62,562 bases of DNA from a virus, in UHGV virus genome UHGV-0106067; one strand, written 5' to 3'. Shown here piece after piece: positions 628 through 37,291 of this stretch; the stretch's first letter is position 1; each line of letters begins with the position of its first letter. The notes under the pieces were generated by a model that saw only the letters and a list, made by a program, of their open reading frames with translations, was not told where the DNA came from and did no database searches. Position numbers and translations under genes: made by a program.

Positions 628-2601
628 TTATGCTGCTACGGCATTCACACCAACAGTAAGACTTTCAATCAGCACAGGGTAAGTTGCCGCATTTCCGGTA
701 ATATCCGTAATTGCCAGCGCGTTGGCCTCAAAGGCTGCATTCGTCCATCTGGTCAGCGTAAACGGTTTTCCTGCTGCATTATCAAGCACCGGCGTGACGT
801 TCAGCGAGCCACCACCCGGGAAGCGGAAAGTCAGCGTGTGCCAGTCGTGATCGAACGGACCATAACTACCAAGCCGCTGTGATGTGGTGTTTGCATGATA
901 CATCACATTGATGTTTGTTTTATCAGTCTGCAGATAGAAGGCCGCAATATAACCCTCCTCTGATTCCGCTCCCGGCCATCCACTACCGCGCCAGTAAATA
1001 CCCGCAGAATATTGATTTGCAGAAGCATTGAGAGATACATCATCGGGGATTTTAAAGCGCAGCGTGATTTCACCGCCGTTATCGAACAGCTCCTTCCCCT
1101 TACCGGCATCAATTGCGTGCGATACTTTCCAGGTCTTTTTCTGTGCAAGACCATTTTCTGGTTTTTCAAGACGAAGGGCTTTTTTACCTGAACCACTGTC
1201 ACTGACCAGCGTGTTTTTGACATCTGTCAGCGTCCAGCCCTGCGAAGCCAGAGCGGCATTTTCCGCATTCACATCATAAGCCAGCACTGACTGTATCTTT
1301 GTCGGGACAACGGCTTCAGGCTGAGTATCGCCACTCTCCTGTGCTGGTTGCGATACGCCTCCGCCTGAAGAAACCGCGGCTTTTGTCACTTTCCCGGAAA
1401 CAAAATCTGCCACTCTGCCCACATGCAGAAGAATGGCTGTTGCCAGACGGTCGGAAATAATTCCGCGACGCGCCCATGAACCAAAGTGGGTTTTACGATC
1501 GGATGTTGTCCAGCTCTTCGCATCCGTTCGTCCACCGGAACCATAATACCCGATAGCCGGAATATCCGGGTCTTCTGACGGTTCATTGGTCCCGACTTTC
1601 TGACCATTGTCATCCATCATAAACGGCACAAAGAAGATATTTTTACCGGCTTTGGTTTTGTATGCGCCATAGACGGCATCGTATTGCGCTGAATACGTCT
1701 CCTTCCAGTAGTACGTCGTGTCACCACAAATCCAGGGCACCAGAGAAGGAGAAGCACCAGCGCACTGACCGGATACTCCCGCCAGGTCAGAACGGTATTT
1801 TTCCACCATGGCATCAAACATGGCGGGCTGACTGGCGTACGCTCCCTGTTTTAAATCAAACTCGCCCTGCATCCAGACAACACAAAGCAGTATGTTTTTG
1901 GGGTTTGCCTTCAGCGCGACCTGAGTGCGTGTCAGCAGGTCTTTATACAACGGCTTATCAACGCCCCATCGTTCAGATTTATCCGACGCTCCTGAACTTT
2001 CACTGAACGTTCCGTCAGCACCGGCTGTAAACGCAGAGCCACCACGACAGCACGGCACTAACAAAATACCCGCATTTTCCGGCATAAAGGGCAACAGCTT
2101 TTTGGCAATATGCAATCCCTGTCCGACACACCCATACTGCTCTGCGCTGGCTTTCGGATGAGAAAAACGGCTCAAATCCTGCACATCATGCAGGCAGTGG
2201 TCCGCCGGAATGATGTCGTTATATGCACAGGCCGCACCACCCGGTGTCACCGTACTGCGACGCGCCAGCTGTTTAATACGCGGGTCCGGACGGTCATATG
2301 TCTCCGGCAGCGGCAGGCCTTCACCATACGCCATGCCGTTTGACTGTCCGGCCAGCGCAATGACAAAGTAATATTCTGGTTCAACAACAACAGTCCGGGT
2401 ACCATCTCCCCCCGGTGAAACTACCGGAGAGGTCATATCCCCTTCAGCGACTATAGCCTGGATAAATTCAGCACCATAACCCGCGTTTGAGATAATCGGA
2501 CTACCATAGGGTTGCCAGCCTTCCTTCAGTTTTTGCGTCAGTTTTCCTGCGAGGTCTGACGGCGATGATGCCCTGACCACATCATAATGTTTAAATGCCA
2601 T
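628..2601 (-). CDS. nanS-p: NanS-p-like sialate O-acetylesterase (DUF1737 N-domain + SGNH-type esterase core)
   Basis: 657 aa; N-terminus MAFKHYDVVRASSPSDLAGKLTQKLKEGWQPYG typical of DUF1737; GQSNG esterase motif; location between Q-side cargo and lysis genes as in Stx phages. Confidence 0.7.
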   Translation of the reverse strand: MAFKHYDVVRASSPSDLAGKLTQKLKEGWQPYGSPIISNAGYGAEFIQAIVAEGDMTSPVVSPGGDGTRTVVVEPEYYFVIALAGQSNGMAYGEGLPLPETYDRPDPRIKQLARRSTVTPGGAACAYNDIIPADHCLHDVQDLSRFSHPKASAEQYGCVGQGLHIAKKLLPFMPENAGILLVPCCRGGSAFTAGADGTFSESSGASDKSERWGVDKPLYKDLLTRTQVALKANPKNILLCVVWMQGEFDLKQGAYASQPAMFDAMVEKYRSDLAGVSGQCAGASPSLVPWICGDTTYYWKETYSAQYDAVYGAYKTKAGKNIFFVPFMMDDNGQKVGTNEPSEDPDIPAIGYYGSGGRTDAKSWTTSDRKTHFGSWARRGIISDRLATAILLHVGRVADFVSGKVTKAAVSSGGGVSQPAQESGDTQPEAVVPTKIQSVLAYDVNAENAALASQGWTLTDVKNTLVSDSGSGKKALRLEKPENGLAQKKTWKVSHAIDAGKGKELFDNGGEITLRFKIPDDVSLNASANQYSAGIYWRGSGWPGAESEEGYIAAFYLQTDKTNINVMYHANTTSQRLGSYGPFDHDWHTLTFRFPGGGSLNVTPVLDNAAGKPFTLTRWTNAAFEANALAITDITGNAATYPVLIESLTVGVNAVAA

Positions 2602-2779: not shown

Positions 2780-2809
2780 GCTCGCGCCTCCCGGCGCGGG
2801 CTTTTTTTG
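2780..2809 (+). terminator. intrinsic terminator (plus-strand orientation)
   Basis: hairpin cgcgcc-tccc-ggcgcg followed by gggcttttttt. Confidence 0.45.
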
Positions 2810-2812
2810 CAT

Positions 2813-2839
2813 GTAAAAAGGCCCCTGCGATGAGGGGCC
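2813..2839 (-). terminator. intrinsic terminator downstream of R-M operon
   Basis: hairpin ggcccct-gcgatg-aggggcc; on minus strand followed by ttttta. Confidence 0.5.
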
Positions 2840-3211
2840 TGAGAGTATTACCTGGTTTCAGTTAACTGCATAGTGCCGGGTGCCTCCCGGTGAGTTCAGC
2901 CCGGTGCCACCGAACCCGCGTCTTTCACATTGCCTGTGACATTAAAAATGCCAGCCCGCACCAGCCGCCCCGCCGCTGAGGGGGATTCACCATGCGTTGC
3001 GATTTTTAACAAATTCACCGCCAGCCAGACAATCATCAACTTGCTGAATTGTGAGGTATTTAAAAATTTCCCCGATTAACTGATACCCTGCTAACCACCT
3101 GTTGTTTTCTTTTTCAGCAACAAAAAAGCCCGCTCATCGGCGGATTCGGCTGCGTGGCAATGTAACCATTCTTATCATGATATGAGGATTTTTACGATTG
3201 TAAAATGTTTT

Positions 3212-4306
3212 TTAACTGACACCAGAATCATCATAACCGCGACTTGTTATAGCTTGCCTGTATGCGTTCATTTTGCGTTCTGCGTACTGGACAACATCTT
3301 TAATGACAAGCTTATGAACAACTGAAATAAGGTCATTTATATAACAAAAGTCAGGTGACTTATTTTTCACTGGCAACCAAATAACATCGTTCTTAATTTT
3401 TCTATTACTAACACTATCCCCCCATGAATATTTATGTGAAATAGACCTATAAATACATGAAATAATGCCCAAATAAGCAAACTTTGTCCTTCCATCCTCA
3501 TTGTTAACATAGAGTCGCAAATTATGACTGTCGTTTGAAAAAAAGTCTCGCTCCTGATAAGTTACAACGAATGTCTTACCACCAATAAAAATACAGTTCC
3601 CTTTTTCCAAGAGTGAGTCATCATAGGCGATATAAGAACTAACAGAGTTATTATCACGGCTAGCACAAAGATAAGGAACATCCCCACTATTTTCTATGAT
3701 GTCTCTAGACAATATGTTTCCTGTATTGCACACTGAGAATAACTCAGTAACAGGAAAGCCTGAAAATTCAATATTTTTAAAATGTTCCAGGATAAGATAA
3801 TCTTTTTCCGTTAGTTGGTAATCACTCAGCCCAGCAGCTATCAGGTATGCTTCCAGCTCTTCTATATGGGCCGCTTCCAGCTCTTCTATATAATTATCCA
3901 TAAAAAACCAGTCAATTTCATTATTTTTCACTGGTAATGAGATGAAATATTCTCCATCTCTGAGTTTGGAACTCGATAACTGTTGACCATAATTAAAACG
4001 CCCCTTTAAAGCTTTATTAATCATACTGGCAACATACAGTCCGCGCTTTGCATTAAAGTCGGACTTACTTGATTTTAATGTAAGAACATGCACCTTCATT
4101 TCTACGCTGGCACAATAAGGATGATAAAAAGCATCTCCAAAAAAATTAACGCTTATAAAATTTTCATAATGTCTTGCATCATCCATAAACTCGGTATCAA
4201 ACTCTCCGATGATACCGTTTTGATCGCTCTTTGCTGAAACACGTTTGATTTTGCCTGGTTTTAATCTTCCTGAGGAGATAAGCGAGCCTGTGCTCACATA
4301 GAACAA
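3212..4306 (-). CDS. restriction-modification specificity (S) subunit, two target-recognition domains
   Basis: 364 aa; two internal repeats each ending in an LPVKN...D-type segment (FISLPVKNNEIDWFF and VIWLPVKNKSPDFCYINDL) as in HsdS/BcgIB-type subunits; AT-rich; directly downstream of methyltransferase-nuclease gene. Confidence 0.5.
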   Translation of the reverse strand: MFYVSTGSLISSGRLKPGKIKRVSAKSDQNGIIGEFDTEFMDDARHYENFISVNFFGDAFYHPYCASVEMKVHVLTLKSSKSDFNAKRGLYVASMINKALKGRFNYGQQLSSSKLRDGEYFISLPVKNNEIDWFFMDNYIEELEAAHIEELEAYLIAAGLSDYQLTEKDYLILEHFKNIEFSGFPVTELFSVCNTGNILSRDIIENSGDVPYLCASRDNNSVSSYIAYDDSLLEKGNCIFIGGKTFVVTYQERDFFSNDSHNLRLYVNNEDGRTKFAYLGIISCIYRSISHKYSWGDSVSNRKIKNDVIWLPVKNKSPDFCYINDLISVVHKLVIKDVVQYAERKMNAYRQAITSRGYDDSGVS

Positions 4307-4365
4307 ATCGCCAATCCTGAACTCTCCCCACTCAACGCTTCTTAATTTATCGCTGAGCGGGGAAT

Positions 4366-6327
4366 TTACTTTCCCGCAAAATTGTTTTCACCTTGTTTTT
4401 TCAGTAATTGCGAGACCTCCCATGCAAGGTAATCACCTACCGTCTTTTTGAAATCCTCCAGCGTTGGCCTAGCATCTACTGGCCTGGTCTGATTCCAGTC
4501 CTCACCACTATCAGGATCGATTGTTCCCTCAAAATATTCATCCTCCGTAAAGATATTAAGGCAACCTTTCCCGAAGTGAACCAGATCCACAACCTCCTGA
4601 TAACGCTCTTTTGCACGATCGGCATCAACAAGATTGTTTCTTGCCTTTTTGCGATTAGAGCGAGCGTAGCCGTCATTGGAAAAGTCGATAAACTTAACAG
4701 CCTGTTTCGCGTTATGCGGAATTTTTACCTGAAAAACGTAAATGTACGTCTGAACGCTTGATTTACCAATAAACAGATCCGCAGGCATTTTGATGCTTGC
4801 CAGCAAGGTATTTTCCTTGAGTATTTTTTTGTTGTACTCCGTAGCCTTTCCTGTGCCAGCTGAACTCTGGATAATCACTGCAGCATAGCCTTTATCCATC
4901 ATCGACAGCGCCTTCTGCACGAAAATCATGCCGTTACCTTTAGCTGAATACGGAGGATTGAGAATAAATGCGTCCGCAGGGAATTTTTCTCCTGTTTTCC
5001 CAAATCCATACTTGCCGTCAAAATCGGCCAGCGAGTCTTTATTGAGGATATTCGAGCTACCATCCCCCATCAAAATCATATTCAGGATGGCCAGCATATA
5101 AATACTGGATAACACCTCAAGGCCAAGAAGCTGTTCAGCCTTGATTTGCGCTTCCTTAAGTTGTAGTTCGTTCGGTGAGTGAATATTTTCTCTGGCGTCA
5201 ATGAGCATTTCATTCATTGCAGCCACAAGCAATCCCGCAGAACCTGTAGCAAAATCCCACACATAGGAATCTTTGTTTACTCTGGCGAGTCGTGCCAGCA
5301 ATGTGGCAACATAAGGTGGTGTCAGAACGACGTCATTGAGCTTGTCCTGCGTAAATCCAAGCCAGCGATACATCTCATTAAACAGTTTGCCCGTAAAATC
5401 GGTGGTCAGTCCAATTTTGTAATACTCCCCAAGATCATCAACAACTTTAACAAACACGCGCTTTAACTGGCTTTCACCGTTGACTGGTTTGTTAATGTTT
5501 TCAGTCCACAGCGTATTTTGCAACGAGCGCAAAATCATTTCTCTTTTTGTTTCAGGAACAGCTTTCAGCCTTAAAAAGTTCCTTATTTTCCTGAAAATAA
5601 TATCACCATCACGCAAGTCCTCCTCCGTTGAAGAGGTCAGTTCTTTTTTATCCAGCGGTGCTAACTTTCCCGGAATCCCCAACGTTGCAATAACGGTAGC
5701 CACAACAAGGTAAACACGATCGCTTTCACCAAGCCCCTTTTCATTCTGGTAAATATCGTTATTCAGACGGGAAAGTCGCGTGTCTATCTCTTCCTCTTTG
5801 CTGGCCTTGATTTTTTCCAGTTCTTCGGGAGGAAGATTAAGCAGCTTTATCTTGTTGAGAAATCCATCAACATTTTTGTCAGCAAGGAACGATAAGTCGG
5901 TGAATTCACCAACCTTCTGTCCGGCTCCTAAATTATTCTTTGATACGTACCACACGCCGATTTCATGATGCAGTTCGCCTGTACCATCATCGCGCCAGCC
6001 GGTCATACCAATAGCAATAATATCAGGGTAATTGGTGAACTGAAGAAGTGCGTTGGCATAATGGACTGCGCCATTCACCGCGTATCCATTAATATTTTTA
6101 AAATTCCATTCTTTTCTGGCATCTTTGTTCTCAATAATACCGTTGCTGCCAAGTCTGATAAGCCTGTCCTTGTAGCCTTTATACTCGATGAGAACGGGAT
6201 ACTGCTTGCCGTATTTGTCCTTAACAAGGAGTTTTACGTCGGGACGATTACCGCCTGCGCCGCCATTTTTCGAAAAATAAGCGTCCAGTGCGTTATCGAT
6301 CTCTCCGTTAAGTGATGCATTCTGCAA
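4366..6327 (-). CDS. fused PD-ExK endonuclease / gamma-class N6-adenine methyltransferase (Type IIB BcgI-A-like R-M subunit)
   Basis: 653 aa; N-terminal PD...(x17)...EYK motif (RPDVKLLVKDKYGKQYPVLIEYK); motif I VWDFATGSAGLL; motif IV FILNPPYSAKG; apparent TTG start. Confidence 0.6.
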   Translation of the reverse strand: MQNASLNGEIDNALDAYFSKNGGAGGNRPDVKLLVKDKYGKQYPVLIEYKGYKDRLIRLGSNGIIENKDARKEWNFKNINGYAVNGAVHYANALLQFTNYPDIIAIGMTGWRDDGTGELHHEIGVWYVSKNNLGAGQKVGEFTDLSFLADKNVDGFLNKIKLLNLPPEELEKIKASKEEEIDTRLSRLNNDIYQNEKGLGESDRVYLVVATVIATLGIPGKLAPLDKKELTSSTEEDLRDGDIIFRKIRNFLRLKAVPETKREMILRSLQNTLWTENINKPVNGESQLKRVFVKVVDDLGEYYKIGLTTDFTGKLFNEMYRWLGFTQDKLNDVVLTPPYVATLLARLARVNKDSYVWDFATGSAGLLVAAMNEMLIDARENIHSPNELQLKEAQIKAEQLLGLEVLSSIYMLAILNMILMGDGSSNILNKDSLADFDGKYGFGKTGEKFPADAFILNPPYSAKGNGMIFVQKALSMMDKGYAAVIIQSSAGTGKATEYNKKILKENTLLASIKMPADLFIGKSSVQTYIYVFQVKIPHNAKQAVKFIDFSNDGYARSNRKKARNNLVDADRAKERYQEVVDLVHFGKGCLNIFTEDEYFEGTIDPDSGEDWNQTRPVDARPTLEDFKKTVGDYLAWEVSQLLKKQGENNFAGK

Positions 6328-6416
6328 CTTGTAATCAAGCCTGTAAGATTTAAGCCATGAGTTCGCCAGTTCGGTAATTTCCGGCTCAACAGATTTTACA
6401 GACTTTCTTGATTTAC

Positions 6417-6451
6417 TGCTGGTCGCTGGTCGCTGGTCGCTGGTCGCTGGT
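6417..6451. repeat. heptanucleotide tandem repeat (YGCTGGT x5) upstream of R-M gene
   Basis: tgctggt cgctggt cgctggt cgctggt cgctggt, about 90 bp upstream of the R-M start. Confidence 0.9.
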
Positions 6452-6635
6452 CTGGCAGCATAAAATCATCCTTTTATGAAAATCAACGATTTTTGAGCAC
6501 TCGCACACAAAAAATTACCGCATTGGTTGCAACGACAACCTGCATTTTGCGGAGCATATGACAAATAAAGTACGGGTGCGTTGAGGATGCCAGACACATC
6601 AGAGGTGGCGGGAGATTACTCCCCTGCCTGGTCTC

Positions 6636-6791
6636 TTACTTCTCAGATTCGTAGTCTACGAAGACAGCGACCTCCGTCTGGCCGGTTCGGATTCGTACCT
6701 CGCAGAAGTCTTTCCTCGTTACCAGTGCTATCACTACGACGGTAATACAGATGACGATCAGGGCGATTAACATCGCCTTTTGCTGCTTCAT
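6636..6791 (-). CDS. hok: Hok/Gef-family type I toxin (HokC/HokD-like)
   Basis: 51-aa ORF MKQQKAMLIALIVICITVVVIALVTRKDLCEVRIRTGQTEVAVFVDYESEK; SD aaggaga upstream; absent from ORF track (<60 aa). Confidence 0.75.
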   Translation of the reverse strand: MKQQKAMLIALIVICITVVVIALVTRKDFCEVRIRTGQTEVAVFVDYESEK

Positions 6792-6966
6792 AGCCTACTT
6801 CTCCTTGCCTTTCGGCACGTAAGAGGCTAACCTAAGTTTGTAAGTCATAGATTTGGCCTCAGATTAATGTTAAGCGTCCTGCAAGACGCGTAATGTTAAC
6901 TGGGGCTTTTCTCTGTCTGCCTTACGGCTGCATGCCCGAGGCAGACAGCCTCAAGCACCCGCAGCT

Positions 6967-6994
6967 ATTCTACAGTAAAAACTCGCGCTTTCAA
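6967..6994 (-). promoter_or_regulatory. candidate late promoter (pR-prime-like) immediately downstream of Q
   Basis: minus-strand TTGAAA-16 nt-TAGAAT; -35 overlaps Q stop codon; inverted repeat ctgtctgcc/ggcagacag just downstream could be part of a qut-like element. Confidence 0.45.
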
Positions 6995-7416
6995 TTTCCC
7001 GCACGTCCGGCAAACTGACTGGCCTGTGATCCTGATGGTTCACGCTCAACGTACCTGTCCATTTCCAGCTTTACTCCCTGCATGATCAACATCCCCTCAA
7101 TAACACCTTCTGCTTTTTGCAGTACCCGCCCGGCCCAGCAATCAGAGCGCCCATGCTTACGGCCCAGTGACATAAGCGTCATCCCGAACACATAATAATC
7201 ATACAGAAAATCATGCAAATCGCTGTTGTTGACGTTCAGTTGCGCCATGCAATTGCTGATAATCAGCGCATCGTCATCGGTACACTGAGGCCGTGATTTA
7301 ACCTTTGACGGGATCAGCCCCTTAAATCCGGCGGCAATGGGCGACCAGCTCACATCCTCATGATTATTGGCCACCCATGCGCCCCAGCGTTCAAGCACCT
7401 GCTGAATATCACGCAT
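6991..7416 (-). CDS. Q: late antiterminator Q (933W/phage-21 type)
   Basis: [45 protein letters not shown] matches recalled Q of Stx phages; position after NinH; start placed at internal Met of 6991..7521 ORF. Confidence 0.65.
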
Positions 7417-7609
7417 CAGAGTCTTTACCCTTATCCCATCCACGATGGACCATAAGGACACCGTTGACGACGGCGTGCCGTTTGCCTTCTTTATCGCCAA
7501 TATATTTTCTGACCGTGGCACGATTACAGTTCAGTATTCGGGCCACCTCGGTCTGATTTCCATATGCCTCAACAAGCATGTCAGGAATGATTTTTACGGT
7601 GAACGTCAT
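7409..7609 (-). CDS. ninH: NinH
   Basis: [36 protein letters not shown] closely matches lambda NinH. Confidence 0.8.
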
Positions 7610-15592: not shown

Positions 15593-16243
15593 TACATAAA
15601 TCAGTCGTACGGCGCGACTTAACCCGCCGCAAAATGCTCTTTAACAATCTGGAGCTTTACAGCGTCAATGACCTGTTTAGACCCCTACACGTAAACGTGC
15701 TGTATCATCGGGTGCGATCCGGTCGATGAGAGAGTATCCCCGCGCGAGAGCGAGAACGGCGTGAGAACGGGCAACACTGGCAGGAAGTTGGCGCTGACCA
15801 ATACAGGGAATGTTTTGGGGTGTGGTGAAGGGTTCATGGACGGGAATATGTCGCACGTAAAGCGGCGAGGCCCGAGGGACTATTGCTGAAGATAAGTAGG
15901 CCGAATCGGGTCGAAATGGGTCTCCCACCTGCCACATCGCCAAAGCATTTCCGAGAAAGGACGGTATTGACTGCGTGTGATGTCGGGGCTATATTTGGCG
16001 AACACCTCATAAAACGGGTGTCGGGATTCTCACCCCGCTGACAATCGAGGCGATACAGACGCGCCAGCGTCTTTTTTTGTATCGACATACACGCACATCT
16101 TATCAATGGTGGGCTGTATGGGGCCGACTTCGGTCGGGCTGGTTCCCTTGATTGCCAGTTGTGAGAACCCTGTACAGTCCACCGCCAGCGAGCTTCTCAC
16201 CTCCTGCGGTGGTTATTAATCACCAATCAAGGAGGCTGCCATT

Positions 16244-28939: not shown

Positions 28940-31900
28940 TTACTCCACTCCCACTTTTTTGTTGTACTCGCGGTTAAACCGATCCACGGCAATTTTCATA
29001 TCCCGCTCAACCGATTTCACCATCGCCGACTGTTGCGCCAGACTGAGAGTACTGTCGGCGTAAATGGCATCACGCTGTTTACGCAAATCCTTCAGTCTCT
29101 TCCGGGTATCCTGCATAAGCCCGTTCATCAACAATTTTCCGTTGTTCTCGTCAATGAACGCCGTTCTTTCTGCACCGGTCAGACTCTTCAGCTCTGCGTG
29201 ATACTGCGCAACCTCTGTCATCCGGTCGTACATCTTCTGCTGGTCTGCATACGGCATCACCTCACCCGAAATTTTCCCCAGGAAGGGCACCTGCTGCTCC
29301 GGTATATCAATACCGTTCAGCGATTTCACCGCCGCATCTGTGGTTTTGGAAATGAAGCGCCCTGTCCCTCCGGAGATATAGTCAATCCAGAATTTCAGCG
29401 ATTCCGGTGTGATATCCACCGCGCCGGGACGATACTGGCTGCCACCTGAGAACGCATTCAGCCAGGATGCAAACGCCTTGTACGCCTCAGGCGTTGAACG
29501 TCTGCCCAGCTGGCTGTCCGGTTTCGGTGTGCCAAATGGCATGTTCTCCTGGTAAATCTGCGCCCCCATGAAGTTTTCATTCATGGCAAGGTTCGCAAAC
29601 GGACGCAGAATGGTCGGCGCTGCATTTTTCAGCAATGCCCCGGACAGTGTTTCCGACGTTTCACTGCCCACAGGACTGAATGCCCCCAGGATACCACCGA
29701 CAACATTACCGGCAGCACGTGAAGCAGTCAGGTCGCCCGCTGCCACACCTTCAGCAGTATGCCCGAGCAGGAAGAAAACGTTGTACCCGTAAGGCAGAGG
29801 AATACTCCAGTACTCTCCGGCCTTGCCCCCGAACACCGATTTCATAATGACGAGGTTACGCTCTTTCACATGAGACGGCACCTTGTCATACCAGTTAACC
29901 CCGTCATCATCCTCCCCCGCAACACTGCGGTTAAGCGAGCCAAGCAGATAACCCGCTCCCACAGCTGCAAGCGCGATTTTCTGCGGTACATTGAGATTCT
30001 TCCAGCGAAGGCGCTCCGGTAACGGCCCGTCGCCATTAAGATGTCCGAGCGTTCTCACCAGGTTTGCGGTCCCCTGAATGCTGGCGTTGGCAAACATATA
30101 CAGCGAGTTCATCAGCGCTCCCTGCTCACCACGACGGTTAAAGTTCACCGTCATGTTTTTGGCAAGAGATGCCGCCTGCTGGCGTGACAAACCGGCATCA
30201 CGGGCGTGTTTATAGGCAGAAAGACGCAGAGCGTTTTCAACCGCGCCGTTGGCATCCTCGACCAGGTTCAGGAACGAATGCCATGCACCGATACTCTGGC
30301 CTTTCCATCCTCCCTTCGCCAGCGATACAAGGCGATCCATTTCCTTCTGCTGGCCTTCAAGGTCACCCATGTTAAACCAGCCGGTTTTACCTCCATCCTC
30401 AACAAACTCTTTCCACACCTTCTGCCACTGCGCACCGTTGCCCGTGAGGGTTTTACCACGCAGACTGGCGTATACGGCAGACATGGCAGACCGGCTGTCT
30501 TTCACCACAGCCAGGGCGGATAAGTTATCCAGCCCTTTCAGTTTACCGTCGCTCCTTCCCTGCTCAGCCTTCAGGTTCATCACCGCCGTCTGCACGTCAC
30601 GGATGAAGTTACTGACCAGAAATTCCGGGTTATACGACGTGTTCACCGTTGCCAGGAAACGGTTAACTTTCCCCAGCGTACGGATTACGGCGTTACTGGT
30701 TTCCGGCCCCATGTTCTTCATCGCACGCATCAGGCGCGGGTCATGGAGTTTGATGTAGTAAGTTTTGCCGTCCTTTTTGGTGGTGAAGTAGCGATCCGCC
30801 ATCATTGCCATAGGCACCGGACGTTCAACAACTTCGCGACGGGTTTCGCCGGTTTCCGGATCAACACGCTCTGCAATCGCCCGCATGGTGTCCGGTTTGT
30901 CATCAGTGAATACCTGCCAGTAATCCTTATCGGGATTATCCTGCACCAGTTTCAGGAAGGCGTTACCCACTTCGTTTTTGCGATTGCGGATCAGCGATTC
31001 GCTCAAATCCTGTATCGCCTGAGTGGAAGGAGACTGTGCGCGGGATGCACGCCCCATGGCCTGCCTGCTTTCACGTCCGCCGATGGTGAAGCCCTTACCT
31101 GCACGGGGCAGTGACACCACACCGTCAACATCCTGACCTTTCAGGGGAACGTAGTAACGGTAGGCGTTCTGCCAGGCATCCACCACACCGCTCTCTTCCA
31201 GTCCGGCCTCACGGATAAGCTCACGGCGACGGGCCAGCATATCGTCAACAATCCCTGCCAGACGGTCATACTGTGCCTGTTTGCCACTGTTACGCACACG
31301 CTGCATGATTTCCGCCGCTTCCGCGTTGGTCATCCCCGAACCGCCGTCCGGCATTTTCGGGTTGATTTTCGCGATATGCGCGTTACGTTCCGGCGCGTGA
31401 CGGGCGTAGAGGTACTCATCCAGATCGGCCTGCGCAATTTTGTAGTCCGCCAGTAATTTAGCCAGTGGCTGAACGTAGCGCTCCTTCATCACGTTCAGGT
31501 CGTTTTCCGCCTTCCCGTGGAAGAGTTCTTCAGCCATATAGGCGTTATTGCTGTCATCTATTTTTCCGCCAGTTTTACGGATATTCTCCTGCACCGCCTT
31601 CAGCACCTGGAATTTATCCTGCATCTGGCGAACAAAACGGGATGCAATTGTCTCTTCCGGTGTCAGACTGCTGGTACGGGAGTAATACGGCCCCTTGCGA
31701 ATATCTTCAGGATAGAGTATTTTATCTACAGAGCCGCGATAAGAATGTTCCCCTTTGGGCAATTGAAGCCCTCTGTGCAGAAGGTTATCGCGGCTTAATT
31801 TTTTCTTCCGGTAAAGCGTTAATCCGGCTTTATCCAGACTATTTGCCTTATTCATTCCTCCTTCCGTACCGTAAACCGAAGCTACCTTGTTGATTTCCAG

Positions 31901-34900
31901 GCGCGACCGGACAGCCTTCATGTGTACCGCTGACACTACAGGATCACCATTTTTATCCATGGCATCAAGCAGCATCACAACCGCATTTCTTTCTGTCGCG
32001 GAACGGTAAATTGCATCCGGATCGTGCATCAGTTCCGGTAGTCTCTCGATAACATCCATCGGCACCACATGTTTCACTCCATTGGTGGCCTTACGCACAG
32101 TGTCGCGGGAGATAACCAGCGGCAAATCTGGTGCGCCAAGGTGACGCAATACCGGCGGCGTACGCCCGATGTTTACCGTTAAATCTGTGGTGCGCAGAGA
32201 CTTCATCATTCTGGCAAGGTCATCACGATAACGCTCGCCCTCACCTTCCGGCACTTTGAACGGATCAGTCTTACCGCTACGGGAGTACTGAGACGATGCG
32301 CCAGCGCCATCCTCACGCGGCGTGTAACCTTCCCGCACACGCTGGCCTAACGTGCGAATAGTTTCGCGAACAAGTCTGATATCGTTCAGCTCTGTCGGCT
32401 TCAGTAACCCCGTGCGACGCAGTACCCCTTTGACCAGGGCAACAACACGCTCCCACGCCGCCACAAATTTATTCGGCTGTTTCTCCGCCATATGTGCCAG
32501 AAATTCACCTGCCTGCACTTCCGGTGATTCCTTAGCATAAGACGCATCAACCTTACGCCAGGCTTCACGGATGGTGGCGTTATCACTGTCACGGGTTTTC
32601 AGCACGGTCTTAATAATCGTCTGATATTCCGCTGGCGTGACTACATGCTCCATTGCATGGTGAATAATCTCGTGACGTAACTTCTCGCGAACGGTCCGCC
32701 CATCAGGGATGTTATCCGCCACCAGGACAATTTCACGTTTATCCGGACGATAGAACGCGTGCACCTTGCCGTAACCGTCGAATGATTCACCCGCCAGTGC
32801 TTCAGCCTCTTTCTGTGACTTCACCACGCGGACCTTCAGGTCACTGTCCTTAATGCCACTAATCACGCCACGGGCAACAGCTTCAACCTGCGGGACCGGA
32901 CTGCCTTTGGCTTCCGCACTACGGTTAACATCCGAAATCAGATTGCCTTCAGGTGTGCGGGTCACGCCCTTACGGGAATAAAACGCAACTCCCTTGTCCG
33001 TCTCACGGGTTTTCAGTGTTCGGAACAAGTGATCGAATGCCTCACGAATACCGCCATCCAGTTCTGCATTCGTCGGATAAGCGTAGGTGTCCGGCTGTCC
33101 ATGGTCATCCGCCTTACGGATATTGACCAGATAATCATTCTCCACGCCAGCCATACGCGCTTTATCCTGAACATAACGCTCAAAGGCTCGCGCCGCCATT
33201 TCAACATCCGTTGACCAGTACGGTTTTGAACGAACGCCATCCAGGCGTTCAGAACGACGCAACATGTCACTGCTGTTAATGGCTTTCATCACGCCTTTAA
33301 ACGCGTCGTAAACCTCCTGACGTACCGGATATTCCGCATCAACATACCTGCCGTCTTTAAATACGCGCCCGGCACGCTGTGCTTCCGTCATATAGTCGCC
33401 ACCTGACGTGATCTTCCCGTCAGTGGAAACATCATAACGACCAAAATAATTATCCAGTGAATGGAACCATTCGTGGGCCAGCGCCCCCGGTCCGTTACCT
33501 TTTGTCAGGTTGATTGCCACCTCACCCGGCTCATAGTGTGCCGCCGCCTTACCCTTACCACGGGCACCAAAAGCAAGCCCAAGACGACCGTTCAGAGAAA
33601 GCGCTTTTGTCGGCACGTTCAGCACGTCAGCCAGGTCATGCAGCGAGTCATAAGCCCGGTTCAAATCAGCCTGACGACGCGGACTTTCCACATAATTACC
33701 AAACTGCACACCACAAAAACCAAACGCATCACTGAACTGCTCCGGCGAAACATCCCCCTTGCGGCGTTCTGGTCCGGTACGATCGCGGTTGGTGGCGTTA
33801 CGCTGCTCCTCACGCGAGACTTCACGCAGCGCCTTCACCTGATTAACCAGCTCATCACGATGTGTGCGCACATAATCATGTGCATCACGGGCAGACTCAA
33901 AACCGCCCTTCAGTTTCTGCCTGTTTTTGCCATAACCGATAAAAATGTCGCCACTGGCCTTATGCCGGTACACGTCAAAGGTTATTCTGTCATCAGCAGA
34001 GGTTGCTGGCGTTTCCCTTTCTCTGGAGCCTTGTTCATCGAAATATGCTTTCGCCTTTTTCAGTAACTCATCCCGGCTTTCCGAGAAAAAGAGGTCGCGC
34101 CCCTTGCTATCACGAAGCGAATACATCATTTGCGGCGGATCGTAACGTTTTCCCCCGACAAACGAATAAACACCGGACCTGACACGATAGCCGGATGCTT
34201 TATCAATCTGCAATGCAGAAAGCGTACGGAGCAGTTTCCAGGTATCCGACATGCTCCGTAACCCCGGCTTACTGTCCATCATATCAGCCAGTTTCGCTGC
34301 CGGAATTTTCCCCTCCAGCATACCGGCAGTAGCTTCGCGACCGCTTTTAACAATGCTGATCCATTTCTGCATGTTACGGCTTGTTCTGGTGGGAATTTCA
34401 CTGCGATACAACGCCATCATTGCCAGCGTGTCACTATCCACACCTTCTTTTTCCAGACGGGCATAATCCGGCTTTGGAAACAGTTTGCTCAGTGGTTGTG
34501 TCGCGTACTCCCCATCCTCCAGCGTTTTACCCATAGCTTCAGCAAGCTGCGCATAACGGTGTTTTGCCGCGCCCTTAATCTCCTCGCCAAAGTCTTCAAT
34601 TTTCGCACCACGCGCCTGCTGGTGAGTGCTCGGTTTATCTACCGGCACCGGCACCTCAGTATCCGGAACATCGGTTATGGTCTGGCGATTATCCCCGGTC
34701 TGTCTGCGCGCTTCTGCCTGCTGTGCCAGTTCCGGAAGGGAGTCACGAACCATACGAGGGAGTGATTCAGGCTGTGGCATATCAACCCCACGCTGACTTT
34801 CAGGTGCAGGAAGTCCTTCACGCATTGGTGCTGTGGCGTTCTGCTCATCCGGTGACGGCAGACCACGACGAACTGTTTCGCCCTCCAGTATTTCCCCCTG

Positions 34901-37291
34901 GCGACCAGCGGCATTTTCCGGTGCCTGCGCACGTCCTTTCTGGAAACTCTGGCCCTTCACCTCACCGGTTGTGGTAAAACGACCACCACGTCCGGCCTGA
35001 TTTTCATCCGGCGTACGCGCTACTTCTCCTGGTAACGGATATCCCTGTCCGGGATGAATATCGCCGGGAGCGGGAAGGCGTGGACGCTCAGTTAACTCCT
35101 GTGCTGTCGGACCGGCATCACCTTCAGCCATCTGGGAACGCACCAGTTCTTCCGCCGTCGGCGCGTTGCCACGGGCAAGACGGGCCTGCACTTCTGTATC
35201 ATCCCCCGTAAAACCACGGAATCGCGGGTCACGCATGAACGCGGGCTGTTCCATCGGATCAGCATCAGTAATACGCTCTCCGTCAGCCAGAGTGTTAATG
35301 GTCTCCGTTGCCACATCTTCAGAGAACGCAGGATTATCCATTTCAACGGCATACTGATTCTCGCCTTTCTTCACTACGGACGGTTTCAGGCCGGTGGCGC
35401 TGGCATTGCGGAAAACGTCGCTCCCCAGAGCACTTTTTTCATCCGTGAAATAACGGTTGTCCGGACGCACCTTTTCAATGCGTTCTGCTGGTCTGGACGC
35501 ACCACTCCCGTTAATTTCAATACGAACTTCATCCGGATCGCGGAACCGCACCGTCGGGTAAATACTCCCGTCGCCATCATCCGCATTTTCCGGCTGTGGC
35601 TGTGCCTCCGGTCTGGCCTCCTGCTGAGGGCGAAGCACATCACGGATAGCCTGTAACTGCTGCTCTTCAGTATCAGTACGCCCTTCCTTCAGGCTGAGTT
35701 TTCGGTATTCCTCAAGCAGTTCAGGGCGCGGCTTCGCCTTCAGCTCATCCATCACCGCCTGTCGCTTCGCCTGTTCATCCAGTTCATTTAACAGCTGGCT
35801 GGCGGCTTCCCGGCGATGAACGGCAGACGTGTCTCCCTCAGGTGCCATATCCGCATCAGCATACTGTTCCAGAAGTTGCTCGCGATTCATGCCCTGCATG
35901 GATTCGCGATGCTGTGCCACCGGATCAGCCGGTTCGGGTTGCGGGGCTGCTTCACCCTGCTGTACGACTTCAGCCTCACGCATGGCGGTTTCTTCTGCGG
36001 CCTGACGTTTTCCACGATATCCGGCAACCGCACCGAACGGTGCGCCCATCGCTGCACCAAGAGCGGCTCCTTCGATCGTTGCGTCAGCTACCCCCTCCCA
36101 TGGTGATACATCCATTCCGGCAGTCTCACGCAACGTCATATTTTCCTGGTAACGCGAATAGCCGCCCTGCGCCGCATTAATCGTCCCCTGTTCCGTGGCA
36201 TTTCTGACAATGCCGCTTTTAACGGTCTTCGCCGTGCCCCGCATCGCCAGATTAAACAACTGAGCATCGCCCAGTTTTGCCGCCATGGCATTCACAGCCA
36301 GCAATTCAGGATCGGTTGCCAGCTGCGCGCGCACCTCATCGGCAACACGCTCTTTTGCCAGATCCATTTTCTGGCGATCAGTAAGCTGTGCGTGCTGCGG
36401 ATCTGCATCAATTGACAAAAACGTCTGCTGAAATTTCGGGGACTTCGCCAGCTCAGAGTAATCCGCGTTAAGAACAGAGTCTGCTGCTGCCATTGCACTC
36501 TGCCCCTGTGCGCTGGCTGAGGAATGGGTGATCAGGCCTGCCTGGAATAAATCCGGCATTTTTTTATCGACAGCTTCTGCTGCCAGTGCGGTAGCTCTTT
36601 CCGGCTGCATCCCTGCCGCAATGTATTTTTTCTCCAGCCCGGCGGTCAGCACTTTTCGCAGAGTGACTTCACCCAGCTTTTTAGTCACACCGCCTGCAAC
36701 CATATCAGGTACAAGGGCACCAATCAGGTTTACGCCCTTCGCCACCCAGACCGCAGAATCATCATAGCCTTCAGTCATCGGTGTATTCAGCGCCCGCTGC
36801 GCCCCCGGCGACATCTTGCCAGTCAGCCATTCATCCGAGGCTTTAGCGCCGCCACTGACTGCCTTGCCTGTGACCTTCAGACCTTTACCGACAGTATCAG
36901 TAACCGCATTTTTTCCATCAGGCAGAGTGTCGATGACCTCATCCGCCCCCTTGCTGCCACCGACAAAAATATCCTGAACAGTTGCGACTCCCGGCAGCCC
37001 CATACGGCTGAACTCATTTAAAATACGCGCCCCTGTTTTTACCGGGCTCTGAATCATCGCATCACCGAGTCCACGGGCCATTTCCCCTGCCCCCCGGACA
37101 GACTGGGCGACACCTTTCCCCATCGTTGGTAATACATCACTCAGGCTGAACGATGTGCTGTGATCAACAGCGTTCTCCGGGTTGTTGAAAAAATCCTGCC
37201 AGTAATTTTCGCCCGGCTGCTTAATGTTCAGGCTGCTGCGGTTCCGGTTACCCAATTGTGCTTCAGGGCGCTGTTCATCTGAATAAGCCAT
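28940..37291 (-). CDS. giant polyvalent virion/ejection protein (2783 aa) with two HExxH zincin-like motifs
   Basis: single uninterrupted ORF; ALAHEWFHSLDNYFGRY and LRHEIIHHAMEH motifs; Pro/Glu-rich low-complexity linker; last and largest gene of the structural block. Confidence 0.65.
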   Translation of the reverse strand: MAYSDEQRPEAQLGNRNRSSLNIKQPGENYWQDFFNNPENAVDHSTSFSLSDVLPTMGKGVAQSVRGAGEMARGLGDAMIQSPVKTGARILNEFSRMGLPGVATVQDIFVGGSKGADEVIDTLPDGKNAVTDTVGKGLKVTGKAVSGGAKASDEWLTGKMSPGAQRALNTPMTEGYDDSAVWVAKGVNLIGALVPDMVAGGVTKKLGEVTLRKVLTAGLEKKYIAAGMQPERATALAAEAVDKKMPDLFQAGLITHSSASAQGQSAMAAADSVLNADYSELAKSPKFQQTFLSIDADPQHAQLTDRQKMDLAKERVADEVRAQLATDPELLAVNAMAAKLGDAQLFNLAMRGTAKTVKSGIVRNATEQGTINAAQGGYSRYQENMTLRETAGMDVSPWEGVADATIEGAALGAAMGAPFGAVAGYRGKRQAAEETAMREAEVVQQGEAAPQPEPADPVAQHRESMQGMNREQLLEQYADADMAPEGDTSAVHRREAASQLLNELDEQAKRQAVMDELKAKPRPELLEEYRKLSLKEGRTDTEEQQLQAIRDVLRPQQEARPEAQPQPENADDGDGSIYPTVRFRDPDEVRIEINGSGASRPAERIEKVRPDNRYFTDEKSALGSDVFRNASATGLKPSVVKKGENQYAVEMDNPAFSEDVATETINTLADGERITDADPMEQPAFMRDPRFRGFTGDDTEVQARLARGNAPTAEELVRSQMAEGDAGPTAQELTERPRLPAPGDIHPGQGYPLPGEVARTPDENQAGRGGRFTTTGEVKGQSFQKGRAQAPENAAGRQGEILEGETVRRGLPSPDEQNATAPMREGLPAPESQRGVDMPQPESLPRMVRDSLPELAQQAEARRQTGDNRQTITDVPDTEVPVPVDKPSTHQQARGAKIEDFGEEIKGAAKHRYAQLAEAMGKTLEDGEYATQPLSKLFPKPDYARLEKEGVDSDTLAMMALYRSEIPTRTSRNMQKWISIVKSGREATAGMLEGKIPAAKLADMMDSKPGLRSMSDTWKLLRTLSALQIDKASGYRVRSGVYSFVGGKRYDPPQMMYSLRDSKGRDLFFSESRDELLKKAKAYFDEQGSRERETPATSADDRITFDVYRHKASGDIFIGYGKNRQKLKGGFESARDAHDYVRTHRDELVNQVKALREVSREEQRNATNRDRTGPERRKGDVSPEQFSDAFGFCGVQFGNYVESPRRQADLNRAYDSLHDLADVLNVPTKALSLNGRLGLAFGARGKGKAAAHYEPGEVAINLTKGNGPGALAHEWFHSLDNYFGRYDVSTDGKITSGGDYMTEAQRAGRVFKDGRYVDAEYPVRQEVYDAFKGVMKAINSSDMLRRSERLDGVRSKPYWSTDVEMAARAFERYVQDKARMAGVENDYLVNIRKADDHGQPDTYAYPTNAELDGGIREAFDHLFRTLKTRETDKGVAFYSRKGVTRTPEGNLISDVNRSAEAKGSPVPQVEAVARGVISGIKDSDLKVRVVKSQKEAEALAGESFDGYGKVHAFYRPDKREIVLVADNIPDGRTVREKLRHEIIHHAMEHVVTPAEYQTIIKTVLKTRDSDNATIREAWRKVDASYAKESPEVQAGEFLAHMAEKQPNKFVAAWERVVALVKGVLRRTGLLKPTELNDIRLVRETIRTLGQRVREGYTPREDGAGASSQYSRSGKTDPFKVPEGEGERYRDDLARMMKSLRTTDLTVNIGRTPPVLRHLGAPDLPLVISRDTVRKATNGVKHVVPMDVIERLPELMHDPDAIYRSATERNAVVMLLDAMDKNGDPVVSAVHMKAVRSRLEINKVASVYGTEGGMNKANSLDKAGLTLYRKKKLSRDNLLHRGLQLPKGEHSYRGSVDKILYPEDIRKGPYYSRTSSLTPEETIASRFVRQMQDKFQVLKAVQENIRKTGGKIDDSNNAYMAEELFHGKAENDLNVMKERYVQPLAKLLADYKIAQADLDEYLYARHAPERNAHIAKINPKMPDGGSGMTNAEAAEIMQRVRNSGKQAQYDRLAGIVDDMLARRRELIREAGLEESGVVDAWQNAYRYYVPLKGQDVDGVVSLPRAGKGFTIGGRESRQAMGRASRAQSPSTQAIQDLSESLIRNRKNEVGNAFLKLVQDNPDKDYWQVFTDDKPDTMRAIAERVDPETGETRREVVERPVPMAMMADRYFTTKKDGKTYYIKLHDPRLMRAMKNMGPETSNAVIRTLGKVNRFLATVNTSYNPEFLVSNFIRDVQTAVMNLKAEQGRSDGKLKGLDNLSALAVVKDSRSAMSAVYASLRGKTLTGNGAQWQKVWKEFVEDGGKTGWFNMGDLEGQQKEMDRLVSLAKGGWKGQSIGAWHSFLNLVEDANGAVENALRLSAYKHARDAGLSRQQAASLAKNMTVNFNRRGEQGALMNSLYMFANASIQGTANLVRTLGHLNGDGPLPERLRWKNLNVPQKIALAAVGAGYLLGSLNRSVAGEDDDGVNWYDKVPSHVKERNLVIMKSVFGGKAGEYWSIPLPYGYNVFFLLGHTAEGVAAGDLTASRAAGNVVGGILGAFSPVGSETSETLSGALLKNAAPTILRPFANLAMNENFMGAQIYQENMPFGTPKPDSQLGRRSTPEAYKAFASWLNAFSGGSQYRPGAVDITPESLKFWIDYISGGTGRFISKTTDAAVKSLNGIDIPEQQVPFLGKISGEVMPYADQQKMYDRMTEVAQYHAELKSLTGAERTAFIDENNGKLLMNGLMQDTRKRLKDLRKQRDAIYADSTLSLAQQSAMVKSVERDMKIAVDRFNREYNKKVGVE

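Follow-up and report, generated by a model that had tools for sequence, protein, structure and literature searches.

The virus genome UHGV-0106067, a stretch of 62,562 nucleotides analyzed here at its full length as one strand (the window), carries on its minus strand a locus with two genes, A, encoding a combined nuclease and methyltransferase subunit (RM), and S, encoding a specificity subunit. We consider it likely that this locus is a BcgI-like Type IIB restriction-modification (R-M) system under two layers of control, a repeat switch at the 5' end of A and a -1 frameshift at the A/S junction. Only slightly less firmly, we judge it probable that a cross-phylum clade of Type IIB systems never makes free S, that conserved -1 programmed ribosomal frameshifting (PRF) gives RM and an RM-S fusion from one mRNA in the ratio of an (RM)2S enzyme, and that Escherichia coli prophages add a hypermutable 7-nt repeat. 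The family-wide frameshift cassette appears undescribed so far, and the literature searched gave no account of frameshifting for Type IIB systems or for R-M systems of any other type. The elements concerned lie at the following positions of the window.

4366..6417 (-), A (RM) coding sequence 3' of the array, with N-terminal segment SVEPEITELANSWLKSY..., PD-ExK nuclease, helical connector, gamma-class N6-adenine methyltransferase (MTase) and C-terminal tail; TAA at 4368-4366
3212..4369 (-), coding sequence of S (specificity), read in the -1 frame over 385 codons from the heptamer (VNSPLSDKLRSVEWGEF...), with two target recognition domains (TRDs) and conserved helices; first ATG, GTG or TTG only at 4306
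4369..4375 (-), predicted -1 slippery heptamer G_GGA_AAG in the A frame with the A stop directly after it, from conservation over 82 loci
4325..4363 (-), stem-loop that begins 6 nt past the heptamer, 13 bp long in the window around a conserved core of 11 bp; folding energy in the window -28.5 kcal/mol, z -3.7
4389..4394 (-), AAGGTG resembling a Shine-Dalgarno (SD) sequence, 13 nt 5' of the slippery site, candidate frameshift stimulator by analogy with dnaX
6418..6452 (-), perfect (GACCAGC)x5 array inside the 5' coding region, 5.0 copies at 100% match by Tandem Repeats Finder (TRF); copy number sets the frame
6459..6473 (-), translation start region of A, with SD AAGGA 6473-6469, ATG0 6469-6467 and ATG1 6461-6459, from the sequence and database E. 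coli proteins

A preliminary description of the locus, made from the sequence alone, had read it as a pair of open reading frames (ORFs) of 653 and 364 amino acids. An ORF check of the window recovered both with the sizes and starts given (A 4366..6327 (-), 653 aa, TTG start; S 3212..4306 (-), 364 aa, TTG start), but the pair did not hold as the true coding organization, because the 653-aa ORF lacks about 30 conserved N-terminal residues and S lacks an initiation site of its own. A ends GCG GGA AAG TAA, and S lies in the -1 frame, open from inside A and encoding KVNSPLSDKLRSVEWGEFRIGDL before its first ATG, GTG or TTG at 4306 (21 conserved codons). Junctions were compared across 91 loci, 80 of them from Firmicutes, Bacteroidota, Proteobacteria, Candidate Phyla Radiation (CPR) and Spirochaetes, with a non-redundant set of 82. 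Of the 91 loci, 89 have S in the -1 frame, and in 66/80 that frame is open for at least 330 codons straight from the heptamer. In 74 loci the first -1 codon after the heptamer was ATA (47), GTA (21) or ATG (6), and the position of the window TTG (the +62 codon) was TTG in 39 and a non-start codon in 35. By codon-position entropy, coding periodicity follows the 0 frame up to the heptamer and the -1 frame beyond it. A second E. coli allele, 85% identical to the window, has another A C-terminus (GAA AAA AAG TTG TAA) and again a startless S in the -1 frame, for which the Prokaryotic Genome Annotation Pipeline (PGAP) chose CTG; in Histophilus somni (locus L037) a 680-aa A is likewise followed by a startless S. 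The same intact S sequence carries four incompatible start annotations in public records, including a split pseudogene. The apparent splitting of S in some strains (L003, L007, L093, L095), where the records show a partial pseudogene together with an internal ORF, was rejected as an annotation artefact of a startless gene, the sequence being intact and identical to the window.

The seven bases before the A stop in the 82 non-redundant loci were GGGAAAA (48), GGGAAAG (23) or AAAAAAA (6), and with a heptamer at -10 in 3 more, the total came to 80/82; as background, 1.0% of the codon positions of these genes carry any in-frame X_XXY_YYZ. Substitutions keep the X_XXY_YYZ pattern (LGK to LKK). The heptamer glycine codon is always GGA, compared with 30% of glycine codons elsewhere, and the base before the heptamer is always G although it belongs to varied codons (CTG, TTG, TCG, GAG, GCG), with G at 15.6% of the other third positions. 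This constancy of GGA and of the preceding G reflects selection rather than recency, since the lineages are saturated at synonymous sites. G_GGA_AAG is highly shift-prone in E. coli (Atkins et al. review, PMC5009743).

Downstream of the heptamer, the 11-bp helix was paired in 99.4% of alignment cells, compared with 35-51% in slid controls, and the same helix was given independently by RNAalifold. Double compensatory changes occur at 4 helix pairs; one pair, found as CG (20), UA (19), UG (13) and GC (5), couples a synonymous leucine third base to a K/E/Q change in the opposite arm. Upstream, an SD-like 4-5-mer was present 9-11 nt from the slippery site in 51/77 loci, against a background of 7.2% (9-fold). 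The A/S junction combines a heptamer at the frame transition, a covarying structure 6 nt downstream, inside the expected 5-9 nt, and, at a switch of coding frame, an ORF without initiation of its own, features by which a -1 PRF cassette is recognized. Rfam gave no family at this junction. Transcriptional slippage in place of ribosomal frameshifting was rejected, GGGAAAG having only three A's.

Natural in-frame fusions were found at two loci (L051 and L032), where the join ...EDDSLG-GISTKLNEKLQSVKWGEY... matches the predicted trans-frame join ...EDDRLGK-IDASLNEKLKNVEWGEY... and the heptamer has been lost from both. When proteins were searched across the junction for natural fusions of full length, the only matches were C-terminal fragments of A ending at LGK, so that full-length fusions are either rare or cannot be retrieved by this search. 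In both L032 and L051, the part joined to A consists of one TRD and one conserved helix and ends ...LEAYLS...*; these are Type IIG-like derivatives of the Type IIB clade. Damaged-looking loci were also seen, with an indel after the stop (L029), a TAG inside conserved WG codons (L074) or GGAAAAG, which is not a true X_XXY_YYZ (L063); these may be pseudogenes or sequencing errors.

At the other end of the locus, the TTG start of the 653-aa ORF had been noted to lack an SD sequence, which proved correct and was a clue to a real gene model for A further upstream. The best PADLOC model aligned to A only from model position 36. Orthologs (Neisseria, Providencia, 80 species of many phyla) begin M..S(I/V)EPNIADLANGWLKSYxLDYKLEQ, about 30 residues 5' of the window TTG, and those 70-73% identical to A start M..S(I/V)EPNIADLANGWLKSY. 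This conserved N-terminal segment is encoded in the window 5' of the TTG, in the same frame and without a start codon. Before the array stands AAGGA-N7-ATG, the ATG being ATG1 (6461), and ATG0 (6469) belongs to a different frame. In databases, E. coli proteins are found that open with MLP(DQRPATS)n... or with MILCCQTS(DQRPATS)n..., so in-frame products are listed for both ATGs. Two Neisseria orthologs (P0042 and P0104) have the N-termini MTQASKKSNKSIEP and MTQASKKSNKSNKSNKSIEP, which differ by in-frame KSN repeats; the difference amounts to a polymorphic 9-nt repeat that occupies the place of the E. coli heptamer array.

Frame simulation placed ATG1 in frame with A at copy numbers n=0 mod 3, ATG0 at n=1 mod 3 and neither at n=2 mod 3. 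At n=5, as in the window, both ATGs are out of frame and both readings end within about 10 codons after the array; the repeat unit itself is free of stops in all six frames. The locus was found in 30/5,426 complete E. coli genomes, every time chromosomal. Sixteen fetched loci, with flanks 99-100% identical to the window or 85% for the second allele, carried arrays of 31, 54, 56, 58, 64, 64, 65, 76, 79, 83, 83, 83 and 99 copies, all perfect, or in the three remaining cases an array with single-base imperfections, and four O111-type isolates had 31, 56, 58 and 83 copies. The frame states of these sixteen were 7 ATG0-ON, 6 OFF and 3 ATG1-ON, and adding the window (17 loci, 5-99 copies) gave 7 ATG0-ON, 7 OFF and 3 ATG1-ON. 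IMG/VR prophage contigs carried 9 to about 100 copies, many of these contigs stopping inside the array, and a cluster of 841 'partial' E. coli proteins begins just after it. None of the 80 distant orthologs has the (GACCAGC)n array. As its unit is not a multiple of 3, it lies within the 5' coding region and 3' of a start codon, and its copy-number polymorphism puts near-identical loci in ON and OFF frames, we conclude that the array is a predicted simple sequence repeat (SSR) contingency switch, added in the enterobacterial lineage, that would operate in vivo. Up to about 230 residues of DQRPATS repeats would be added in the ON state, and the locus could be silent in this genome. Rfam gave no family at the array, and in the literature the array sequence gave no match, while locus names used in MLVA (the analysis of multiple-locus variable-number tandem repeats) gave nothing usable. 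An antisense ORF annotated by PGAP as 'YXWGXW repeat-containing protein' or hypothetical (L001 3122-3739, L004 438-1151, others) is almost certainly an artefact of the stop-free repeat. Three IMG/VR contigs (L097, L100, L103) carry (GACCAGC)9-12 followed by (ACCAGC)4 in an unrelated phage context, with other flanks and no RM gene downstream.

The assignment to the BcgI-like Type IIB family, proposed in the preliminary description, was borne out by PADLOC, Pfam and an existing phage annotation alike. The PD-x17-EYK motif (RPDVKLLVKDKYGKQYPVLIEYK), DFATGSAG and NPPY were all located in A, in columns invariant across orthologs, placing on one polypeptide the motifs of a PD-(D/E)xK nuclease and of a gamma-class N6-adenine MTase, the latter with motif I ahead of NPPY, and both LPVKN segments were found in S. 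A matched the curated PADLOC family REase_MTase_IIG (PDLC03616) at E 6e-228, and S matched Specificity_II (PDLC03591, a 341-position model) at E 9e-21. Pfam placed N6_Mtase in A (E 4e-21) and two Methylase_S domains in S, whose two TRDs are accompanied by conserved helices, the central IEELEA repeat and the C-terminal helix being visible in the sequence. The record of phage PhiR12_3 (from ECOR13) labels the same gene 'BcgI alpha chain-like'. A Type IIB feature missing from the locus is a start codon for S that would let it be produced as a polypeptide apart from RM. Sequence relatives in the PDB were absent at E<=0.01 for both the A protein and a 7-sequence profile. An AlphaFold model of A reached an overall pLDDT (predicted local distance difference test) of 56 from a shallow alignment, its N-terminal alpha/beta domain (pLDDT 80-94) being the sole trustworthy part; Foldseek matches of this weak model were HsdM subunits, BpuSI, LlaBIII and the Type IIB enzyme BsaXI, all at low TM-scores.

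Orthologs of the window A protein are 675-692 aa long, and that of H. somni L037 is exactly 680 aa. Type I-like Type IIB RM proteins include Hso63250II.RM (680 aa) and HpyUM032XIII.RM (679 aa), with BcgI, BaeI and SdeOSI at 626-637 aa (PMC11997821). These data support a BcgI-like Type IIB RM+S system of an approximately 680-aa clade, predicted to restrict and methylate DNA, and Hso63250II and HpyUM032XIII probably belong to the same clade. Between the window A and the second array-bearing E. coli allele (85% identical), dN/dS was 0.053 with dS of about 1.5, from which it follows that the A gene has been maintained; dS against distant orthologs is not computable, synonymous sites being saturated. 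A 24-bp tandem duplication at about 3838-3889 (-) lies in the central conserved helix of S (IEELEAAH / IEELEAYL) and is reported by TRF in the identical loci L001 and L003 as well; it is reminiscent of the EcoR124I/II repeat that sets the spacer length of the recognition site.

Several points weigh against the combined explanation, and are set out here with the alternatives that they favor. Frameshifting at the A/S junction is, in the first place, a reading of nucleotide sequence, and activity does not require a fusion: separate S subunits serve in BcgI and BsaXI (PMC11997821), and an H. pylori (Helicobacter pylori) S given an engineered ribosome-binding site and start codon yielded methylation (Krebes et al., PMC3936762). 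An AGGA lies 8 nt 5' of the window TTG at 4306, making some independent initiation of S conceivable, overlapping ATGA in six loci would permit ordinary translational coupling, and PGAP annotates a separate S. A conventional two-subunit system, in which S starts at TTG 4306, GTG 4297 or a non-canonical codon through coupling and the heptamer, stop and hairpin serve coupling or mRNA stability, is nevertheless unlikely. Separate initiation of S is disfavored by ATA or GTA directly after the heptamer in 68/74 loci and by the non-start +62 codon in 35/74, by the -1-frame periodicity and conserved peptide over the approximately 21 codons 5' of any S start, and by natural fusions that join at exactly the predicted residue; coupling, for its part, does not predict a strict X_XXY_YYZ, a GGA-only glycine or the preceding G.

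Concerning the switch, ATG0 has poor SD spacing, no promoter for lysogen expression was identified, and an OFF-to-ON change would have to avoid self-restriction. The OFF call at n=5 is uncertain and may reflect assembly collapse, long-read genomes showing 31-99 copies, and between-strain differences in copy number are alone no proof of rapid reversible switching. Arrays of up to 99 copies (31-99 in the fetched loci) are also far longer than simple ON/OFF control needs, and since all six unit frames are stop-free, long tails could be translated. These last facts suit an array acting as a graded regulator (a spacer, an untranslated-region element or a variable N-terminal DQRPATS tail tuning activity) rather than as a frame switch, for which the 7-bp repeats upstream of the Haemophilus influenzae hmw genes offer a likeness. 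We regard graded regulation as rather more doubtful than a conventional two-subunit arrangement: an SD and ATG stand 5' of the array with the conserved N-terminus 3' of it lacking any in-frame start, a 7-nt unit necessarily shifts the frame, and the other two frames end within about 10 codons after the array.

The most improbable alternative is an inactive remnant with A frameshifted by a meaningless variable-number tandem repeat, S startless and nothing functional made, as similar systems were read in H. pylori, where the S genes of BcgI-like systems likewise have no start codon following the RM stop and HP1471/72 and JHP1364/65 were reported inactive (PMC3936762), and in gonococci, where NgoAVIII methylation was not seen; the OFF frame of the window fits it, but the dN/dS of 0.053 at dS of about 1.5 across alleles, A and S ORFs intact and identical in many genomes, the same 'defects' conserved across phyla with compensatory changes, the bipartite motifs assigned to the clade-size enzymes Hso63250II and HpyUM032XIII, and the 680-aa A with a startless S in H. 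somni L037 all speak against it.

Under the explanation we favor, a repeat switch followed by a -1 frameshift, transcripts would come from pR', from read-through of hok/sok or from another promoter. A would be translated from ATG1 (6461), or from ATG0 (6469, probably weakly), through (GACCAGC)n to the conserved N-terminus, and slipped-strand gain or loss of 7-nt units would move A between ATG1-ON, ATG0-ON and OFF. Most ribosomes would stop at the TAA and release free RM. A fraction, set by the efficiency of the shift, would slip -1 on G_GGA_AAG, aided by the abutting stop, the stem-loop 6 nt downstream and the SD-like element upstream, and read 385 more codons to give an RM-S fusion. One RM and one RM-S could then assemble into an (RM)2S Type IIB enzyme, expected to recognize a bipartite site and cut on both sides of it.

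Like BcgI (RM 637 aa and S 341 aa), the window system pairs a PD-ExK and gamma-class N6-adenine MTase RM protein with a Type I-like S of two TRDs, with homology at the level of hidden Markov models. Unlike BcgI, its enzyme falls in the approximately 680-aa clade (E 3e-44 to the 637-position model PDLC03602, against 6e-228 to its own), its S is startless in the -1 frame behind a slippery site, and the E. coli version carries a 5' heptamer array. Hso63250II (CGAN5RTAY) and HpyUM032XIII (CYAN6TRG) were likened to it by RM size and by a Type I-like RM with a C-terminal tail, not by sequence identity (PMC11997821 Table S2), and neither has had a frameshift described. BsaXI (cryo-EM 8W0P), a Type IIB heterotrimer of composition (RM)2S, matched at fold level, but its RM is 916 aa long with knob and paddle motifs, unlike window A, and its S is expressed separately.

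Fusions of RM to S are familiar from single-chain RMS Type IIB enzymes such as AloI, PpiI and CjeI. Characterized Type IIB enzymes are split into RM+S and single-chain RMS forms, half being natural RMS fusions, and most modelled S subunits look incomplete or askew, with recoding unmentioned (Shen et al. 2025, PMC11997821). In the single-chain RMS enzymes (TstI, PMC11997821 Table S2) and in an engineered EcoKI M-S fusion, a flexible linker ties S covalently to the C-terminus of the MTase; the EcoKI construct is functional and needs extra free M in vitro, that is, M plus M-S (Roberts et al., PMC3510504). In contrast to the RMS enzymes, fusion in the window system would be facultative through recoding, with free RM and RM-S made from one mRNA.

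The junction cassette resembles those of dnaX (A_AAA_AAG, upstream SD and downstream hairpin) and lambda G/GT (G_GGA_AAG) in its heptamers, its SD-like element about 10 nt upstream and its hairpin 6 nt downstream, and in those genes the product ratio is fixed by shift efficiency, as proposed here; it differs from both in belonging to an R-M enzyme family and in the zero-frame stop that abuts the heptamer. The array resembles phase-variable R-M genes (H. influenzae mod with AGTC/AGCC; the Type IIG gene cj0031 of Campylobacter jejuni with poly-G, PMC4889913; Type I hsdM/hsdS SSRs, PMC7383803) as a 5'-coding repeat whose length sets the frame and whose copy number varies among strains, and is unlike them in its 7-nt unit, its up to 99 perfect copies, its E. 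coli host and its prophage-borne gene. The text of the REBASE hsdM/hsdS SSR survey contained no Escherichia entry and no mention of the window locus. Having two start codons in two frames also likens the locus to lic1 of H. influenzae. Hypermutable 7-nt contingency loci have, to our knowledge, rarely been reported in E. coli.

Bacterial users of -1 frameshifting form a short list of dnaX, insertion sequence (IS) elements, phage tail chaperones and a few others. If the frameshift reading is right, it would be the first programmed frameshift described in an R-M system, and a large, phylogenetically broad cellular gene family would join this list, with subunit stoichiometry as the rationale. It would also explain systems dismissed as having an 'S without a start codon' or as inactive: annotated S subunits of the clade would be N-terminally truncated or split, which may account for 'inactive' systems and for the poorly modelled S subunits noted in 2025, and the point would bear on the cloning of Type IIB enzymes of the kind used in 2b-RAD. 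The hypervariable array breaks short-read assemblies and differs among near-identical O111:H8 isolates, making it a potential high-resolution typing marker. Its place in the late-region slot that also houses Shiga toxin (Stx) suggests stochastic ON/OFF defense or epigenetic heterogeneity in lysogens.

The surroundings agreed with the preliminary description, which had placed an AT-rich locus between Q/pR' and nanS-p in the slot where Stx phages carry the toxin. GC content was 0.35-0.36 over S and 0.43-0.44 over A, compared with 0.48-0.53 in the flanks; Q (6991..7521), NinH and NinG lie upstream and NanS-p (628..2601) downstream, with hok/sok intervening. A 99.9% identical E. coli locus annotated by PGAP has the order NinG, NinH, antiterminator Q, Hok/Gef, HsdM-family methyltransferase, restriction subunit S and SASA esterase (NanS-p). 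As a moron of an stx-less lambdoid prophage, the locus lies between Q/hok-sok and nanS-p, in the position of toxin cargo between Q/pR' and the nanS-p/lysis genes. The flanking regulatory elements are as follows.

6967..6994 (-), pR'-like late promoter, TTGAAA-16-TAGAAT, directly after Q; 10/12 in a consensus scan and the sole strong site upstream of the locus, with a putative late-promoter function
6636..6960 (-), toxin-antitoxin module of the hok/sok type, lying between the promoter and the RM gene (hok ORF 6636-6791; sok RNA 6786-6960); Rfam sok 118 bits, PGAP 'Hok/Gef family protein' in the identical locus
3129..3144 (-), terminator-like hairpin and T-run after S, from a pattern scan only

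Given the pR'-like promoter candidate (6994-6967), the boost of the locus on induction that had been proposed is plausible; late transcripts from it would have to cross the hok/sok module before the RM start. In strain E2855 (L003) the RM locus is followed by a methyltransferase remnant and ileZ-argN-argO; no tRNA genes were found anywhere in the window. An STnc100 small RNA (Rfam, 149 bits) lies at 2809-3025 (-), between the terminator-like hairpin after S and nanS-p. Further into the window, isrK (16002-16077) and a C4 antisense RNA (16102-16189) adjoin each other on the plus strand, a pairing that we take to recall the anti-repressor control modules of P1/P7-like and lambdoid prophages. A 2783-aa ORF occupies 28940-37291 (-) within the structural-gene block and, together with the gene order, is reminiscent of 933W-like short-tailed Stx phages.

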